Part shown: in pieces, positions 5,632-52,793 of the stretch
How positions within the stretch are numbered: position 1 is the first letter of the stretch
Layout: the number at the start of each line of letters is the position of its first letter
Origin: an uncultured Bacillales bacterium
GTDB lineage: Bacteria; Bacillota_I; Bacilli_A; RFN20; CAG-826
Length of the DNA stretch: 64,000 nucleotides
Direction: 5' to 3'
Assembly (NCBI GenBank): GCA_937902735.1
Contig: CALELS010000015.1
Location: forward strand, 15,070-79,069
The notes under the pieces: generated by a model
Database searches by the model: none
The model's input: only the letters and a program-made list of their open reading frames with translations
What the model was told of the DNA's origin: nothing
Program-made: the position numbers and the translations under genes

Positions 5632-5928
5632 ATGAAAACATATAACATTGAAGTATTAAAAGATGCATCACGTCGTTTGTTATTTGAAATGAGTGATGAA
5701 CAATATGACACGCTTTTGAAGGAATTTGATATCGTCGTTTCTCAAATGAAATTAATTGGTCAAGACAAAGAAGTTGATTCATATGAACCAATGATTTTTC
5801 CATTTGAATGTAAGACTAGTTATCTTAGAGAAGATGTCCCGTCAACTCCTTTAACTCGTGAAGAAGCACTTAAAAATGCCCACAACAAAACTGGTGGGCA
5901 AATTAAACTTCCAAAGGTGGTGATTTAA
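5632..5928 (+). CDS. gatC: Asp/Glu-tRNA amidotransferase subunit C
   Basis: 98-aa ORF immediately upstream of gatA/gatB, in the canonical gatCAB order. Confidence 0.8.
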   Translation: MKTYNIEVLKDASRRLLFEMSDEQYDTLLKEFDIVVSQMKLIGQDKEVDSYEPMIFPFECKTSYLREDVPSTPLTREEALKNAHNKTGGQIKLPKVVI

Positions 5929-5929
5929 C

Positions 5930-7390
5930 ATGGATTACCGCAAATTATCAATTAAAGAACTTCACGACTTATTAGTGAAGAAAGAAATCACGCCTTTAGA
6001 AATAACTAAAGAAGCTTTGAAATATTTAAAAGAAGATGACAATAACGCTGTTGAATATGTAATGGAAAAAGAAGCATTAGAAATCGCTTCTAAACTAACT
6101 GAACCAGAAGAGAATAACCTTCTTTGGGGTATTCCATTTGCTATTAAAGACAATATGTCCACCAAGGATGTTCCAACAACAGCATCAAGCAATATCTTAA
6201 ATGGATACGTTCCTGTCTATAACGCTACTGTTGTAGAAAGATTACTTGCCAAGCATGCTGTTCCAATCGCTAAATCCACACTTGATGAACTGGCTATGGG
6301 TGGAACAGGAACAACTGGACATTTAGGAATCACATATAACCCATATGATAAAAATCATGAAAGATTAGTCGGTGGATCTTCTTGCGGAAGTGCTGCTTTA
6401 ACTAGCGCAGGTATCGTACCATTTGCTTTAGCAAGTGACACTGGCGATTCTACCCGTAAACCAGCATCATACGCAGGCTTGGTTGGTTTCAAACCAACAT
6501 GGGGAAGAATATCTAGATATGGTTTGTTCCCATTTGCACCATCGCTTGACACCGTTGGTGTGTTCTCACGCTGTGTTTTTGATTCTGCGCTTGTTCTTAA
6601 TGCTTTGGCAGGAAGAGACGAGAAAGATTCAACATCATCTTCTAAACCTGTTGAAGATTATACTTTGCTTTTAGGCAAAGGCATTCGCAAAAACAAAATC
6701 GCAATTATTAAAGAAATCAATGATTCAATCACTGATAAAGAAGTTAATGATGCATTCTATAAAACTTGTGAAAACTTAAAGAAGCAAGGATATGTTGTTG
6801 AGGAAGTTAGTATCCCTGCATCATTACTTGCAACTCTTTTCCCAACATATTTTGTTATTTCTTGCGCTGAAGCAACAAGCAATAATGCTAATCTTGATGG
6901 AATTAAATTTGGTCCATATTATGATGGATCAACCTATGAAGAGGTTATGTCTAAAGCTAGAACAAAAGGTTTTAGCGAACTTATTAAACGTAGATTTGTT
7001 ATTGGTTCATACGTTTTAATGAGAGAAAACCAAGAAGAGTTATTTATTCGCGCTCAAAAGAATAGACATCGAATTGTTGAAACTATAAACAAAATATTCG
7101 AAAAATATGATTTCATTTATGCACCAGCTGCACCAAGTATTGCTCCTAAAATGAATGAAAAAAACGATAGATTATCCAATGAATACTTAATTGCAGATAA
7201 TCATCTTTGCATTGGAAACTTTGCTGGTTTACCTTCAATTACAATTCCAATTGGTATTAAAGATAACATGCCTTTTGGTGCAAATATTTCTGGTCGTCCA
7301 TTCGAGGACGCTGATGTTTTACAATGTGCATATAAACTTGAAGAAACAACATCTTTAAAAGGAATTGTTGCTCTTAAGGAGGATAGATAA
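5930..7390 (+). CDS. gatA: Glu-tRNA(Gln)/Asp-tRNA(Asn) amidotransferase subunit A
   Basis: Amidase signature GGSSCGSAA and Ser-cisSer-Lys region; 486 aa. Confidence 0.9.
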   Translation: MDYRKLSIKELHDLLVKKEITPLEITKEALKYLKEDDNNAVEYVMEKEALEIASKLTEPEENNLLWGIPFAIKDNMSTKDVPTTASSNILNGYVPVYNATVVERLLAKHAVPIAKSTLDELAMGGTGTTGHLGITYNPYDKNHERLVGGSSCGSAALTSAGIVPFALASDTGDSTRKPASYAGLVGFKPTWGRISRYGLFPFAPSLDTVGVFSRCVFDSALVLNALAGRDEKDSTSSSKPVEDYTLLLGKGIRKNKIAIIKEINDSITDKEVNDAFYKTCENLKKQGYVVEEVSIPASLLATLFPTYFVISCAEATSNNANLDGIKFGPYYDGSTYEEVMSKARTKGFSELIKRRFVIGSYVLMRENQEELFIRAQKNRHRIVETINKIFEKYDFIYAPAAPSIAPKMNEKNDRLSNEYLIADNHLCIGNFAGLPSITIPIGIKDNMPFGANISGRPFEDADVLQCAYKLEETTSLKGIVALKEDR

Positions 7391-46983: not shown

Positions 46984-47691
46984 ATGGGTAGACATCACGA
47001 AGTTCGCGCTGCCGCAATGGCCAGAACTGGAAAAATTAAATCAGCATTATATGCTCGCGCTTCAAGAGAAGCTTATTTAGCTGCAAGAACTGGTAGTCCA
47101 GATCCAAAGACTAACCTTGCTCTTAGAGCAGTTTATGAAAAATATCGTGGTAAATCAGTTCCAAGAGATGTTTTTGATAGAGCTATTAAAAAAGCCCAAG
47201 GTGGTGATGCTGAAGTATTTTTAGCAGGAAGATATGAATTCTTTGGTCCGGCCGGTAGCTACATCATTGTCGATACATTAACTGATAATCCAAATCGTGC
47301 CTTAGTAGATGTTAAAACTACTGTAGTTCGTAAAGGCGGTCACTTAGGTAGTGTTGCATATAACTTCACTGAAAGTGGTGTCCTTGCATTTAAAGGAAAT
47401 AACCGTGATGAAGTTGAAGAAGCATTAATCTTAGGTGATGTTGATGTTCAAGAAGTTGAACAAGACGAGGACTTAATTGTTGTCTATGTTGCTCCAGCAG
47501 CATTTGCTCAAGCTAAAGAAGTTTTAGCAGCTATGGGAATCACTGAATATGAAGAAGCTGAAATTCAAATGATTCCAAATGAAACAATTGATATGCCTGA
47601 TGAAGAAACTAAAAACCGTTTCCAAGAACTTATTGATAATTTAGATGAATTAGAAGATGTTCAAAACGTCTTCCATAACGTAAATCTTTAA
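46984..47691 (+). CDS. yebC: YebC/PmpR-family probable transcriptional regulator (YeeN subtype)
   Basis: NLALRAVYEKYRGKSVPRDVFDRAIKKAQGG conserved block; 235 aa. Confidence 0.8.
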   Translation: MGRHHEVRAAAMARTGKIKSALYARASREAYLAARTGSPDPKTNLALRAVYEKYRGKSVPRDVFDRAIKKAQGGDAEVFLAGRYEFFGPAGSYIIVDTLTDNPNRALVDVKTTVVRKGGHLGSVAYNFTESGVLAFKGNNRDEVEEALILGDVDVQEVEQDEDLIVVYVAPAAFAQAKEVLAAMGITEYEEAEIQMIPNETIDMPDEETKNRFQELIDNLDELEDVQNVFHNVNL

Positions 47692-47707: not shown

Positions 47708-47737
47708 AATGAGGGTGAAATAATCCCTCATTTTTTG
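47708..47737 (+). terminator. Rho-independent terminator after yebC
   Basis: aatgaggg-tgaaataat-ccctcatt followed by tttttt. Confidence 0.65.
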
Positions 47738-47822
47738 TTAGTTACATTAGGTTACATAATTACACATTTTTACACTTGATGAACTTTTTTACTTATAGTA
47801 AGATAATAGTGAGGAAAAAGAT

Positions 47823-49505
47823 ATGACAATCAAAGAATTACGAAATTCAGTTAAAATGTCTCAAGAAGATTTTGCTCGTATTTTAGGCATTAGTAGAAAA
47901 ACATATATTAATCTTGAAAAACCTAATGCTGAAAAAGAAACGCCTAATTATGAGATATATCTAAAGATTCTTTCTAATCTTTTTTCTACTAAATTCAGAT
48001 GTAGTGTCACTCTAGGTGATGAACTTAAGGAATACTACAATGTAGTAAAAAAATACAAAAAGAGATTTTGTTATAAGTATTTACTTGATTACATAAACAA
48101 TGATTATCGAGGAAAAGTTTGCATTTTGTATGGTCTTAGAAGAACCGGAAAGACCACGATGCTATTTCAACTATTAAACGAACTTGATTTAGCAAAAACA
48201 GCTTACATCAAAGTAAATAGATCAAATACCATGAATGATTTAATTGATGATATTGATTTATTAAAAATGAGAAAGGCTAAATACATATTAATTGATGAAG
48301 TAACCTTAATAGATAATTTCATTGAATCTTGTTCAGTCTTCAGTGATATCTATTCAATGCTTGGTCTAAAAATCATTCTTTCAGGAACAGATTCTTTAGG
48401 TTTTGCTTTTGCAGATAGAAATGAATTATATGACCGTAATGTAATGATTCATACTTCATATATTTCATTTAAAGAATTTTCATATGTTTTAGATATTGAT
48501 GATGTTGATAAATATATCGAATATGGTGGAACACTCAAACACGAGAATATGTCTTTTAATGACCCTAACTATAAAAATGATGAAGTCTCATTTCTAGATG
48601 ATGAATCTACAAGAAAATATATAGATACTGCCATATGCCATAATATTCAGAATTCATTAAAGAACTATAAATACGGAACGATGTTTGTTCATTTGAGAAA
48701 ACTATATGAAAATAATGAACTTACGAATGCTATTAATCGTATCATTCAGGATATGACTCATTCTTTCCTTGTTTCTGTTATTACAAAGACATTTAAATCG
48801 TCAGATCTTGGCTCTTCTAAGAATTTATTAACTCATTCAAGAGATAAAAACATAAGAGAATCTTTAGATAATATTAATGAAGAAAAAGTCATAAAAAAAC
48901 TTAAAGAAATAATTGATGTAAAAGAAAAAGAAGAGACTAAGTTATCAATTGATGAAGATATCGTTTACCAAATCAAAGATTATCTAGAATTACTAGATTT
49001 AACTAGAAATGTTGAATATAGATATGATGATGGTTCGGTCGAAGACTATACAATATTTACCCAGCCAGGAATGAGATATTCAATCACAAAAGCTCTTGTA
49101 TATTCTCTTATGGAAGATACTTCATTTTCATCACTAAAAGAAAAAGAAGCAGTTATTAATCTCATATTAAATGATGTTAAAGGAAGAATGCTTGAAGATA
49201 TAGTGCTTTTAGACACTGTTACAAAGAGTAGAGATTTAAATATTTTCAAATACAAACTTATCACCGGTGGTGAAGTTGACATGGTTATCTCAAAATCTAA
49301 TCTACATGTTGATCTTTATGAGATAAAACATTCTTCATCAATATCCTTTGAAAATCAGACAAGATATTTGAATGATGGAAAGAACCTTTCTTTAATTGAA
49401 AAACAATTTGGACCAATTGATAGTAAGAATGTGATTTATCGCGGTGAAGACAGCGTTGTTAACGGAATTAATTACATAAACGCGGAAAAATATTTAAAAA
49501 GATAA
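47823..49505 (+). CDS. XRE-HTH fused to an AAA+ ATPase of the COG1373 type (AAA_14 plus C-terminal DUF4143 nuclease-like domain)
   Basis: N-terminal HTH MTIKELRNSVKMSQEDFARILGISRKTYINLEK. Walker A ILYGLRRTGKTTML, Walker B YILIDEVTLI, and C-terminal GGEVDMVI (DUF4143 E.D motif). Confidence 0.7.
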   Translation: MTIKELRNSVKMSQEDFARILGISRKTYINLEKPNAEKETPNYEIYLKILSNLFSTKFRCSVTLGDELKEYYNVVKKYKKRFCYKYLLDYINNDYRGKVCILYGLRRTGKTTMLFQLLNELDLAKTAYIKVNRSNTMNDLIDDIDLLKMRKAKYILIDEVTLIDNFIESCSVFSDIYSMLGLKIILSGTDSLGFAFADRNELYDRNVMIHTSYISFKEFSYVLDIDDVDKYIEYGGTLKHENMSFNDPNYKNDEVSFLDDESTRKYIDTAICHNIQNSLKNYKYGTMFVHLRKLYENNELTNAINRIIQDMTHSFLVSVITKTFKSSDLGSSKNLLTHSRDKNIRESLDNINEEKVIKKLKEIIDVKEKEETKLSIDEDIVYQIKDYLELLDLTRNVEYRYDDGSVEDYTIFTQPGMRYSITKALVYSLMEDTSFSSLKEKEAVINLILNDVKGRMLEDIVLLDTVTKSRDLNIFKYKLITGGEVDMVISKSNLHVDLYEIKHSSSISFENQTRYLNDGKNLSLIEKQFGPIDSKNVIYRGEDSVVNGINYINAEKYLKR

Positions 49506-49561
49506 TTGATATTTTACATAATAATCGTTTAAGTATTAATATATGATATCATATACACAAT

Positions 49562-50428
49562 ATGAATAAGAAAATAAACTACATAAATTCCTATAACAAA
49601 GACAAATACAAGATGTATCAATTTCGTATTAAAAGAAGTAATGATGCTTTAATCAATAAATTAGATAATCTCACTAATAGGAACCATTATATTGAGAACC
49701 TTGTTTTAGAAGACATTGATTCATCCATTTTAACTATCAAAGAAATAAAAGATAGAATTCGTCCAATAGTAATTAAGTATAAAATCAAAGAATTGTATCT
49801 ATTTGGTAGCTATGCTAGGGGAGAAGCCAATAGAGATAGCGATATAGATTTATATGGAGATACTGGAAATGCTGGTGGTTTTGAATCACTCGCCATGGCG
49901 GATGAATTTAAAGAAGTCTTAAATAAAGAAGTCGATTTTATTTCAATTGGATCAGAACTAACACCATTATTTAGAGAAGAACTAAATAAAGATAAAATCA
50001 AACTATTTGATAATGATGTTTTGAATGAAAATTTTCACACTTTTTCGTCAAATACCTCCTATATAAGTAATGGAGGAAAAAATATGATAAGTACACGTGA
50101 TAGAAACATCATATTTAACATCATCAAACACTCTAAAAGAGTAATGACCATAATGAAAAATATAAGTTTTAAAGAATTTGATGCTGATGAGCTTAGAAAA
50201 GAAAGCGTTTGTATAAACATTCTTCAAATTAGCGAATTAGCGAAATCATTATCAAGAGAATTCATTAAAAAGCACAATGAAATTCCGTGGAAAAAGATAA
50301 AAGGCAATAGAGATATAATCGCTCATGGATATGGAACGATAAATTTTAAAAGAACGTATAAAACGTGTGTAAATGATATTCCTGTATTGCTTAATTATCT
50401 TGAAAACATATATTTTAACGAAGAGTAG
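49562..50428 (+). CDS. Fused minimal nucleotidyltransferase (MntA-like) plus HEPN (DUF86/HepT-like) protein with an N-terminal extension
   Basis: MNT motif LYLFGSYARGEANRDSDIDLYGD. HEPN motif RDIIAHGY (Rx4HxY). 288 aa. There is no convincing RBS, so the start is uncertain. Confidence 0.65.
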   Translation: MNKKINYINSYNKDKYKMYQFRIKRSNDALINKLDNLTNRNHYIENLVLEDIDSSILTIKEIKDRIRPIVIKYKIKELYLFGSYARGEANRDSDIDLYGDTGNAGGFESLAMADEFKEVLNKEVDFISIGSELTPLFREELNKDKIKLFDNDVLNENFHTFSSNTSYISNGGKNMISTRDRNIIFNIIKHSKRVMTIMKNISFKEFDADELRKESVCINILQISELAKSLSREFIKKHNEIPWKKIKGNRDIIAHGYGTINFKRTYKTCVNDIPVLLNYLENIYFNEE

Positions 50429-50468
50429 TTTGATTGTTTTTAACAGACTTAAACATGAAGATGATACT

Positions 50469-50497
50469 GGGTGAATCAATATTCACCCTATTTCATC
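50469..50497 (+). terminator. Hairpin terminator after the MNT-HEPN gene
   Basis: gggtgaat-caat-attcaccc followed by tatttcat. Confidence 0.5.
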
Positions 50498-50517
50498 AAC
50501 AATATAGAAAAAATCAA

Positions 50518-50546
50518 TTGACTACGTATATGCATGCATATATAAT
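50518..50546 (+). promoter_or_regulatory. Consensus sigma-70 promoter (TTGACT-N17-TATAAT) for rplM-rpsI, with a 65-nt leader
   Basis: Exact hexamers at 50518-50523 and 50541-50546; strong RBS aaggagg before the ATG at 50613. Confidence 0.6.
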
Positions 50547-50612
50547 CTTTTTCGGCACACAGAAAAATCAATAGTCCCGGTAAGATTATTGCTTGAGTAA
50601 GGAGGAAACAAA

Positions 50613-51056
50613 ATGCAACGTCAAACAACGATCGCAAAGCCAAGTGAGATTAGCCGTAAATGGTATGTCATTGATGCAACCGATGTACCTCTCGGTCGTC
50701 TTGCTTCCCTCGTCGCCGTAAAACTTATGGGTAAAGATAAACCTATCTACACCCCACATGTCGATTGCGGTGATTATGTTATTATCGTTAATGCTGAAAA
50801 AGTCGCGCTTAATGGTACAAACAAAAAACAAAACAAAAAATACTACAATGTTTCCGGATATAATGGAGGTCTCCGCACAAGAACTGCTGGAGAAATGCTC
50901 GAAAAATATCCAGAAGAAATGGTAGAAAGATCCGTCTGGGGTATGTTACCAAAGGGTCCACTCGGTAGAGTAATCTACAAGAAACTCTTTGTCTACAAAG
51001 GACCAGAACATAAACACGAAGCTCAGAAACCTGAAGTTCTCGTGTGGAAGAGATAA
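50613..51056 (+). CDS. rplM: 50S ribosomal protein L13
   Basis: [16 protein letters not shown]...; 147 aa. Confidence 0.93.
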
Positions 51057-51067
51057 GGAGAATAGTT

Positions 51068-51460
51068 ATGGCAGAAACTAAAGTATTTTATGGCACAGGC
51101 CGCAGAAAATCTTCTGTCGCTCGCGTCTTCGTTACTGCAGGTAAAGGTAAAATTACTGTCAATGGTGAAGATGTAAATAAATATATGCCTTACGCAACTC
51201 TTGTTATGGATTTAAGCCAACCATTAGAAGTAAGTGGTAACATTGATAAATTCGATGTTAACGCCCAAGTCAAAGGTGGTGGATTCACAGGACAAGCAGG
51301 TGCAATCCGTTTAGGTATTGCTCGTGCTCTTCTTGAAGCAGGTGTTGATCGCAAAACCTTAAAAGTTGCTGGACTCTTAACTCGTGATGCTCGTGCTAAA
51401 GAACGTAAAAAATACGGTCTTAAAGCTGCTCGTCGCGCTCCACAATTCTCCAAACGTTAA
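51068..51460 (+). CDS. rpsI: 30S ribosomal protein S9 (start at [14 protein letters not shown]; the track ORF is extended upstream)
   Basis: [13 protein letters not shown] and C-terminal [29 protein letters not shown]. Confidence 0.93.
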
Positions 51461-51479
51461 TCGTTTCCAAATGTATGCT

Positions 51480-51625: not shown

Positions 51626-51702
<77 letters not shown>

Positions 51703-51749
51703 TTTAGATTAATCTAGCCCCGAAAGGGCTATTTTGATAGAAGTGTTTG

Positions 51750-51825
51750 GGGCACTTAGCTCAGCTGGGAGAGCGTTTCCTTCACACGGAAGAGGTCGCA
51801 GGTTCGAGCCCTGTAGCGCCCACCA
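51750..51825 (+). tRNA. tRNA, read as Val (anticodon CAC); Ala-like scaffold
   Basis: GGGCACTTAGCTCAGCTGGGAGAGCGTTTCCTTCACACGGAAGAGGTCGCAGGTTCGAGCCCTGTAGCGCCCACCA. Anticodon stem TTTCC/GGAAG, loop TTCACAC. There is one A-C mismatch in the acceptor stem by my fold. Confidence 0.6.
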
Positions 51826-51843
51826 CTAAAAAACATTACATTT

Positions 51844-51919
51844 GCCGTCTTAGCTCAACTGGCAGAGCAATCGCCTTGTAAGCGATAGGTTGATGGTTCG
51901 ATTCCGTTAGACGGCACCA
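51844..51919 (+). tRNA. tRNA-Thr (anticodon TGT)
   Basis: GCCGTCTTAGCTCAACTGGCAGAGCAATCGCCTTGTAAGCGATAGGTTGATGGTTCGATTCCGTTAGACGGCACCA; anticodon loop CTTGTAA. Confidence 0.85.
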
Positions 51920-51972
51920 CGAAAATGAAATTCCCCCTAATATTTGGGGGTTTATTCATTAAAAATCCACCT

Positions 51973-52057
51973 GGAAGTATGGCGGAACTGGCAGACGCGC
52001 TAGACTTAGGATCTAGTGGGGTAACCCGTGCAAGTTCGATTCTTGTTACTTCCACCA
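51973..52057 (+). tRNA. tRNA-Leu (anticodon TAG), class II with long variable arm
   Basis: GGAAGTATGGCGGAACTGGCAGACGCGCTAGACTTAGGATCTAGTGGGGTAACCCGTGCAAGTTCGATTCTTGTTACTTCCACCA. Confidence 0.85.
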
Positions 52058-52181
52058 GTGTGCACAAATTACAATAACTTAGTTATTGTACACCACAGAA
52101 AATCGCACCATTACGTATGCTATGGTGCTTTCTTTTTTAGATAGACTTTTATGTGGTATATTATATTTAGAGAAACAAATC

Positions 52182-52793
52182 ATGGAAGTAAAATACATTA
52201 AAATCAGAGCGGATTTTAAATATGCGGATAAAGGAAGATTTTATCGTACCTTTTTAGTTAAAGAAGATGTTAATTTAGGTGAACTTGGTGAATTCATAGT
52301 TGAAATATTTGGAGGAACATTAGAACACTATTTTCTATATAGACTAAAAGATAGACATTACGTTCCAAGTGAATGGATGGATGATAGTTTAATGTCTAAC
52401 TTCATTAAATACGAACCATTTAAAGAAAAATCTATTTTAGATTTACCAGATGAATTTGAATTTGCCTATGATACAGGTGATGGCTGGGATTTTAAGTGTA
52501 AAAAATACAAAAAACCTATAATAAAAGAAGTGGATGAAAGTGATATTTCTTTTGGGTTTGTTTTAGAAGGAAAAGGAATGGGTATATGGGAAGATAATAT
52601 ATATTCTTTATATGCTTATCTTAATGGTGAAATAGATAAAGATTTCAATAAAGAAGATGAAGAAAAAGGAATATATAAACCATGGAATTTTGATATAGAT
52701 AAATATTCCGAATTTGATAATCCGTTAGACATTAATGAACTCAATCATATTGCTATGAGTTTTTGGCCTATTGGCGAAGAAAATAGATATTAA
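52182..52793 (+). CDS. pRiA4b ORF-3-like family protein (PF07929-type; YDxGDxW motif); start likely MEVKYIK
   Basis: FAYDTGDGWDFKCK matches the conserved Y-D-F/T-G-D-x-W core of this family. The track ORF from 52086 overlaps tRNA-Leu and has no RBS; the ATG at 52182 is preferred. Confidence 0.5.
   Translation: MEVKYIKIRADFKYADKGRFYRTFLVKEDVNLGELGEFIVEIFGGTLEHYFLYRLKDRHYVPSEWMDDSLMSNFIKYEPFKEKSILDLPDEFEFAYDTGDGWDFKCKKYKKPIIKEVDESDISFGFVLEGKGMGIWEDNIYSLYAYLNGEIDKDFNKEDEEKGIYKPWNFDIDKYSEFDNPLDINELNHIAMSFWPIGEENRY

Follow-up and report, generated by a model that had tools for sequence, protein, structure and literature searches.

We analysed a 64-kb stretch of DNA, hereafter the window, from an uncultured Bacillales bacterium (contig CALELS010000015.1), focusing on two open reading frames (ORFs) that lie on its + strand between yebC (46984-47691) and rplM (50613-51056). 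The first (47823-49505) encodes a 560-amino acid (aa) ATPase with a helix-turn-helix (HTH) domain and a predicted nuclease-like C-terminus, and the second (49562-50428) encodes a 288-aa protein resembling both components of a HepT/MntA-type toxin-antitoxin (TA) system. The original prediction, made from the sequence, had described these two ORFs and a series of motifs in their products, all of which we recovered at the same coordinates with the ORF list and Pfam. Its domain calls were also correct, with HTH_3 and AAA_14 in the first protein and Polbeta/NTP_transf_2 and HepT-like in the second scoring over the cut-off, and the two TA halves do belong to one chain, a single 288-aa ORF. The features of the locus are as follows.

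47708-47737, + strand: intrinsic terminator of yebC (hairpin at 47708-47732 followed by a U6 run; folding free energy, dG, -16.4 kcal/mol, z -5.2)
47742-47775, + strand: direct repeats TTACAT, TTACAT, TTACAC and TTACAC with 8-10 bp spacing, immediately before the -35 hexamer; a candidate array of operators for binding by the HTH domain of the ATPase
47776-47804, + strand: candidate promoter of the ATPase gene, TTGATG-N17-TAAGAT (8/12 consensus positions)
47823-49505, + strand: ATPase gene, 560 aa (HTH, AAA+ of the AAA_14 type, helical region, and C-terminal PD-(D/E)xK-like, DUF4143-like domain)
49513-49542, + strand: promoter-like site TTTACA-N18-TAATAT in the 56-nt intergenic spacer (9/12 consensus matches)
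49540-49555, no strand assigned: perfect 16-bp palindrome TATATGATATCATATA, candidate TA operator
49562-49729, + strand: conserved N-terminal extension of the 288-aa protein, residues 1-56 (predicted beta-alpha-alpha; candidate operator-binding domain)
49736-50008, + strand: MNT (MntA-type minimal nucleotidyltransferase) domain, residues 59-149 (GS-x10-DxD at G82-D96)
50009-50083, + strand: 25-codon in-frame spacer, D150-N174, in place of the stop/start overlap of two-gene relatives (GGAGGA at 50072-50077)
50084-50428, + strand: residues 175-288, the HEPN RNase half or HepT (starts with an internal ATG, separated from GGAGGA by 6 nt; R250-x4-H255-x-Y257)
50469-50488, + strand: terminator-like hairpin at the end of the TA segment (dG -17.4 kcal/mol, z -4.1; weak U-tract)
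50511-50612, + strand: beginning of a block shared with locus L006 (see below), containing the rplM promoter TTGACT-N17-TATAAT (50518-50546; 11/12 consensus matches) and 5' leader

In the 288-aa protein, residues 66-152 matched Polbeta (47.5 bits) and NTP_transf_2 (39.3 bits), both over the cut-off, and residues 188-283 matched HepT-like with 68.7 bits (cut-off 23.5). The catalytic motifs of both halves are intact, comprising G82, S83, D94 and D96 of GS-x10-DxD and R250, H255 and Y257 of R-x4-H-x-Y; among 30 HepT relatives, the H and the Y of the latter motif are invariant and the R nearly so. The HepT half, 46-49% identical to stand-alone HepT proteins, keeps the nearly invariant R, W, G and E, with QIGEL changed to QISEL as the only departure. 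In the AlphaFold2 (AF2) model, the MNT domain is confidently predicted (predicted local distance difference test, pLDDT, >90), and the best Foldseek matches in the PDB were MntA chains from solved MntA/HepT complexes (7bxo, 7ae9, 8xeh and 5yep).

A search of 5.8 billion proteins yielded 88 matches, the fusion itself and 87 others, and 87 of the 88 were about 158-200 aa long and covered the N-terminal half only. Eighteen types of locus carried the N-terminal extension, with HepT present as an intact separate gene in eight, split or truncated in six and absent from four; a fused antitoxin-HepT was found in none of these 18 types. The separate HepT gene is adjacent to the antitoxin gene, which lies upstream, in L005, L008, L010-L013, L015 and L016. 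In L005, for instance, a 162-aa antitoxin gene is followed by a 114-aa HepT gene overlapping its stop, and the corresponding parts of the window protein are 56% and 46% identical, respectively. HMMER searches with the HepT half against 1.84 billion representatives gave 4,007 matches, and among the best 150, inspected for architecture, only P0339 was an MNT-HepT fusion. Two other proteins among the nearest HepT relatives, P0267 and P0304, join HepT to different partners (Eco57I-type methyltransferase plus HepT, 331 aa; HepT plus GNAT acetyltransferase, 298 aa).

The usual junction of the two-gene relatives reads ATT AAA ATA TGT TAA, with the HepT ATG inside (ATATGTTAA). In the window, the antitoxin stop is gone and IKLF is followed by 25 in-frame codons, with GGAGGA-N6-ATG at the place that corresponds to the start of HepT (GGAGGA at 50072-50077, then 6 nt, then the ATG at 50084). 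The 25-aa linker encoded there, DNDVLNENFHTFSSNTSYISNGGKN, has a pLDDT below 50 over residues 158-174. Going by its sequence, the 288-aa gene is a HepT/MntA TA pair merged into one reading frame.

Other relatives have a damaged toxin gene. HepT is stop-split, frameshifted or truncated, next to an intact antitoxin, in L017 (3938-4273), L018 (5426-5569), L019 (4338-4668) and L020 (2535-2831), and such relatives are orphan antitoxins on a path of decay. In L001 (235-1168; also in L002-L004), the antitoxin stop is mutated from TAA to TGG and HepT is deleted.

Fused MNT-HEPN proteins were described in 2026 (FhepTA, Shewanella oneidensis SO_1440; Yao et al., NAR 2026; PMC13000451). They constitute a published class, a point that does not favour the view of the ATPase as functional partner of the TA. 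FhepTA self-AMPylates in cis, and its MNT domain blocks HEPN dimerisation; a short hydrophobic linker of 3-8 aa is needed for cis self-AMPylation, and there is no internal ribosome-binding site or start for the HEPN part (PMC13000451). The window protein resembles FhepTA in architecture, as a single polypeptide whose MNT domain is N-terminal and whose HEPN domain is C-terminal, and in its derivation from a two-gene HepT/MntA ancestor through loss of the stop/start junction. Unlike the 3-8 hydrophobic residues of FhepTA, however, its linker consists of 25 polar residues, predicted to be disordered, and it keeps the internal Shine-Dalgarno (SD) sequence and ATG for HepT that FhepTA lacks. It also has the additional 56-aa N-terminal domain and the palindromic operator. 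Moreover, FhepTA has two-gene relatives with >90% identity, whereas none above 60% is known for the window protein. FhepTA is carried on a prophage or mobile island; the TA segment in the window is an indel relative to L006, and no prophage context was seen among the neighbours scanned. Canonical HepT/MntA and the window gene agree in fold and motifs, for both halves, and in the position of the antitoxin 5' of the toxin, and the relatives of the window gene are overlapping pairs; it differs in being one 288-aa ORF instead of two separate genes and in scoring below the NCBIfam equivalog cut-off of 60 bits (MntA_antitoxin 43.2, HepT_toxin 23.0).

The extra N-terminal region noticed in the original prediction is real and strongly conserved, with 12 invariant positions, although it spans about 56 aa and not about 70. 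In the AF2 model (pLDDT 77-90), it forms strands at residues 16-18 and 22-24 and helices at 28-35 and 40-52. This predicted beta-alpha-alpha topology, and the presence of a palindrome at its own promoter, are reminiscent of ribbon-helix-helix domains, but the extension showed no sequence match to any known family or structure of this type, nor any meaningful Pfam or PDB sequence match even at E values up to 10. The palindrome lies just before the start codon of the fusion and occurs only once in the window. Its 10-nt core, ATGATATCAT, was found upstream of the MNT gene in 15 of the 20 extension-bearing loci but in none of the 63 that lack the extension, and it is also located 5' of the antitoxin gene in diverged relatives with unrelated flanks. 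Because of this co-occurrence, we infer that the extension is an operator-binding domain and that the module is self-regulating. Canonical MntA, in contrast, has been described as lacking a DNA-binding domain (PMC7641770).

In the ATPase, Pfam identified HTH_3 (residues 3-33, 28.1 bits; cut-off 23) and AAA_14 (residues 98-219, 51.3 bits; cut-off 27), and a sub-threshold DUF4143 match (residues 419-503, 17.5 bits; cut-off 28.1). The protein contains a Walker A motif, GLRRTGKTT (G104-T112), a Walker B motif (D158/E159) and GGEVDMVI. In a set of 73 homologs, the Walker A and B motifs, E458, E484, E500 and K502 do not vary, and at least 90% of the set retain D486. The DUF4143-like C-terminal nuclease fold of the original prediction may be present, with GGEVDMVI in place, the acidic and lysine residues conserved and the Pfam score under its cut-off; conservation of the DUF4143 and HEPN motifs among homologs, on which the prediction had made its own validity depend, was found for both proteins. 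The AF2 model (pLDDT 85; predicted template modelling score, pTM, 0.81) orders the chain as HTH, AAA+ core, helical region and C-terminal unit, with residues 441-539 of the latter showing an alpha-beta-beta-beta-alpha-beta order and bearing the acidic and lysine positions conserved in the family. PMC3424549 lists DUF4143/COG1373 among the PD-(D/E)xK families, with its function unknown. The ATPase belongs to a very large family, and its relatives, about 565-575 aa long, number more than 7,950. Elsewhere, its homologs stand alone in a variety of contexts and are seldom met in collections of phages and plasmids; PDB searches returned generic AAA+ or HTH matches only, and a scan of the genome collection gave a single weak HTH match.

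The PADLOC search suggested in the original prediction returned candidate families for both proteins, PDC-S01 and PDC-S09, although the best match of the ATPase (PDLC04791, E 8.6e-10) extended only over profile positions 5-167 of 395, which correspond to the ATPase part. An hhalign comparison with the canonical PDC-S01 protein from L022 gave a 91% homology probability over the ATPase and lid region, and the L088 homolog has a match to a PDC-S01 model over the C-terminal part of that model. These similarities identify the ATPase as a long, HTH-bearing relative of PDC-S01, an unvalidated PADLOC candidate. Both share an AAA_14 ATPase and occur as single-gene modules, and the C-terminal domain of the window protein may, like that of PDC-S01 (AAA_14 plus DUF4143, COG1373), be of the PD-(D/E)xK type, but the window protein is about 160 aa longer, with its N-terminal XRE HTH and large helical region, and has no full-length match to a PADLOC PDC-S01 model. 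PDC-S01 is very common and lacks experimental validation (PMC12988326, PMC13356809), and a defence role of this candidate type is possible for the ATPase. In L088, the divergent neighbour of the ATPase homolog is a NERD-domain protein, and in L090 (5509-6897; also L091 and L092) the genes after the homolog encode a PDC-S27-type ATPase (E 1.7e-43), a 606-aa protein and an rve transposase.

The promoter proposed for the ATPase gene could be located at 47776-47804, a correction to the earlier coordinates. Both hexamers are present (TTGATG at 47776-47781 and TAAGAT at 47799-47804) and the position is conserved in L006 (TTGTGA-N17-TAAAAT), but the site matches the consensus at only 8 of 12 positions and falls under the promoter-scan threshold. 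The repeats beside it belong to a pattern seen at the promoters of ATPase-family genes, which contain four or five direct repeats about 10 bp apart whose sequence differs between lineages. They read TTACAC in the window (four, at -81, -71, -63 and -53 relative to the ATG) and in L006 (five; 270-315), TTTGCGC, four or five times, in L088 (about 5905-5950) and L090-92 (about 3420-3470 in L090), and TATAACCCC upstream of the ATPase gene in L094-L104. The repeats switch together with the type of N-terminal DNA-binding domain of the ATPase homologs. In the homologs from IMG/VR viral contigs (L094-L104), the XRE HTH is replaced by another N-terminal domain of about 90 aa (containing LPIGYISKKTINGKTRYYHQW), and the related protein P0135 is annotated with PF20586. 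The HTH of the window ATPase may bind the phased TTACAC repeats at its own promoter and repress its own gene, and the ATPase might oligomerise and control the nuclease-like domain.

To examine whether the two genes form one unit, we compared the window with the locus of the closest ATPase relative, L006 (74% identity). There, the ATPase gene is directly upstream of rplM-rpsI, with no MNT/HEPN gene, and DNA similarity to the window extends over 47754-49450 (73%) and 50511-51473 (89%), with the TA segment (49506-50510, about 1 kb) replaced by about 36 nt. As L006 carries the ATPase at rplM-rpsI without the TA, the TA segment corresponds to a separate indel. Upstream of the L006 ATPase lies a gene other than yebC; the ATPase is linked to rplM and not to the yebC/rplM gap that had been proposed as the insertion site.

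We also searched the surroundings of the TA subfamily, for which 80 further metagenome loci were fetched and all their ORFs scored. No homolog of the window ATPase was detected by phmmer within 5 kb of any of 85 MNT loci, although this query was too narrow and missed canonical PDC-S01 in L001 and L022. In a broader test, we ran the PADLOC models over all neighbour ORFs, comparing extension-bearing antitoxins with ordinary MNT/HepT modules as a control. PDC-S01 matches amounted to 2 of 80 ORFs near the former and 2 of 117 near the latter, and other defence candidates and methyltransferases were found near both sets. The adjacency of ATPase and TA is best explained by both gene types occupying the same variable regions. 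As for the individual cases, the 95-aa ORF next to the antitoxin in L001-4 is a C-terminal fragment of a canonical PDC-S01 ATPase (PDLC04787, E 1e-18), and in L022 (3393-5606) a frameshifted antitoxin is directly preceded by a full-length PDC-S01 gene of the canonical type (442 aa, with GVRRSGKSY as Walker A), in the gene order of the window; this antitoxin has the palindrome, and HepT remnants follow it.

Together, our results indicate that the locus probably consists of two accessory modules that are independent of each other and have separate regulatory DNA, placed side by side upstream of rplM-rpsI, the TA having been merged into one ORF. Several observations weigh against this reading. 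The synteny comes from a single close locus, L006, a 3-kb metagenome contig, and PDC-S01-type genes stand directly beside this TA subfamily in three independent places (the window, L022 and, as a fragment, L001-4), so that there may be some weak functional or positional affinity between the two. The interval between the genes (49500-49565) showed no terminator or significant structure in terminator scans and folding, and read-through co-transcription is therefore possible. The extension matches no known DNA-binding family in Pfam or the PDB, and the HEPN half of the AF2 model and the arrangement of the domains are of low confidence (pLDDT 37-76, pTM 0.48). Additionally, with many of its relatives in decay, the fusion itself may not function, and its ATG (49562) lacks a Shine-Dalgarno sequence, whereas all relatives compared upstream have a purine-rich, SD-like motif, although a weak one in L009. 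The original prediction treats the ATPase-nuclease and the fused MNT-HEPN as partners in a single operon for defence or abortive infection, acquired together and inserted in one piece. Their common strand, the 56 nt without a terminator between them, the PADLOC candidate matches of both, the PDC-S01-type genes that abut the TA subfamily in L022 (in the order of the window) and in L001-4, and the other defence candidates around the TA subfamily would all agree with it. Nevertheless, we consider this highly improbable, given that the TA is missing from L006 although the ATPase occupies the same site there, that window-ATPase homologs occurred at none of the 85 MNT loci and are solitary elsewhere, that the TA has its own conserved operator and a promoter-like site, and that ordinary MNT/HepT modules have PDC-S01 next to them at the same low rate. 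Furthermore, one partner is broken in both of the other juxtapositions (L022 and L001-4), and PDC-S01 itself awaits experimental validation (PMC12988326).

A serious alternative, if on balance an unlikely one, is that the fused gene is a decaying, non-functional HepT/MntA remnant, in which the loss of the stop and of the ribosome-binding site reflects pseudogenisation and the spacer is open by chance. Besides the missing SD sequence before the ATG, this would account for the lack of fused close relatives of the 288-aa protein, the loss of an intact HepT from 10 of the 18 related locus types, the comparable stop loss in L001, where HepT is deleted, and the change to QISEL of a nearly invariant motif; at this base composition, a 25-codon spacer has about a 10% chance of being open. 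Conversely, neither catalytic motif is damaged, nor are the remaining conserved HepT residues, the palindrome of the operator is perfect, and the internal start is preceded by a consensus GGAGGA; were the toxin expressed with no functional antitoxin, it would be lethal. MntA-HepT fusions constructed in experiments, in addition, are non-toxic and functional (PMC13000451). The absence of fused close relatives might also suggest a sequencing or assembly artefact, but a single-base error is not enough for the fusion, which takes 75 extra in-frame bases, and records of this 288-aa protein come from NCBI, Logan and ENA and cover two contigs. Similarly, weak Foldseek matches to ANT(4'), AAD(9) and LinB (ranks 20-35), which also combine a nucleotidyltransferase with a helical domain, raise the question of a drug-modifying enzyme of the ANT/Lnu type instead of a TA. 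These matches had TM scores of about 0.2 and E values of 1e-3 to 1e-2, however, with MntA/HepT complexes scoring best, and the C-terminal half has R-x4-H-x-Y in addition to its identity to HepT. An artefact or a drug-modifying enzyme is, consequently, the least credible explanation, with hardly any chance of being correct.

If the gene is a functional merged TA, its mode of action can be proposed by analogy with HepT/MntA and FhepTA (PMC7641770, PMC13000451). The N-terminal domain would repress the promoter via the palindrome, and the MNT domain would use ATP to AMPylate Tyr257, beside the R250-x4-H255 RNase site; AMPylation and a steric block of HEPN dimerisation would hold the RNase inactive. 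The RNase could then be released, and growth arrested, once AMPylation is lost or the disordered linker is cleaved. With the HepT SD sequence and ATG retained, free HepT may also arise from the same mRNA and be neutralised in trans. We tentatively entertain the possibility, somewhat doubtful at present, that one frame yields two products, the full-length operator-binder, MNT and HepT protein and free HepT from the internal GGAGGA-N6-ATG.

The boundaries of the locus agree with the original prediction in that a strong terminator lies upstream, with none of 200 shuffles folding as well as the yebC hairpin, and a hairpin lies downstream, though with a poor U-tract. The rplM 5' leader (50547-50612) is conserved with L006, within the block of 89% identity that starts at 50511. 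Downstream of the 288-aa ORF are rplM-rpsI (50613-51460), a cluster of four tRNA genes (51626-52057) and, directly after it, a PRiA4_ORF3-like gene with a TTG start (52086-52793), which may be another accessory insertion. An Rfam scan detected only the four tRNAs, and the rplM leader was below threshold for every family, including ribosomal-protein leaders (no L13 leader). The ORF list and Pfam revealed no phage or integrase gene among the neighbours scanned, flanking repeats not having been searched for. G+C content was rejected as evidence of insertion, because the 0.26-0.30 of the locus is equally low elsewhere in the window.

These results separate two genes that neighbourhood annotation would merge into one defence system, with PDC-S01 adjacency at its background rate. 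They also point to a HepT/MntA subfamily with an antitoxin-borne, predicted DNA-binding domain and a conserved 16-bp operator, of which we found no description in the literature examined. The window gene is an independent example of the origin of an MNT-HEPN fusion, by a second route, and could be used to test the need for a short linker in cis-AMPylation. Should two products indeed be made, this would be a nested, in-frame TA, in which the ratio of translation starts, the outer without an SD sequence and the inner strong, sets the toxin to antitoxin balance, and whose antitoxin would combine a DNA-binding repressor of type II with a modifying enzyme of type VII. For the ATPase, the co-variation of promoter repeats with the N-terminal DNA-binding domain offers a testable handle on an abundant, uncharacterised family.

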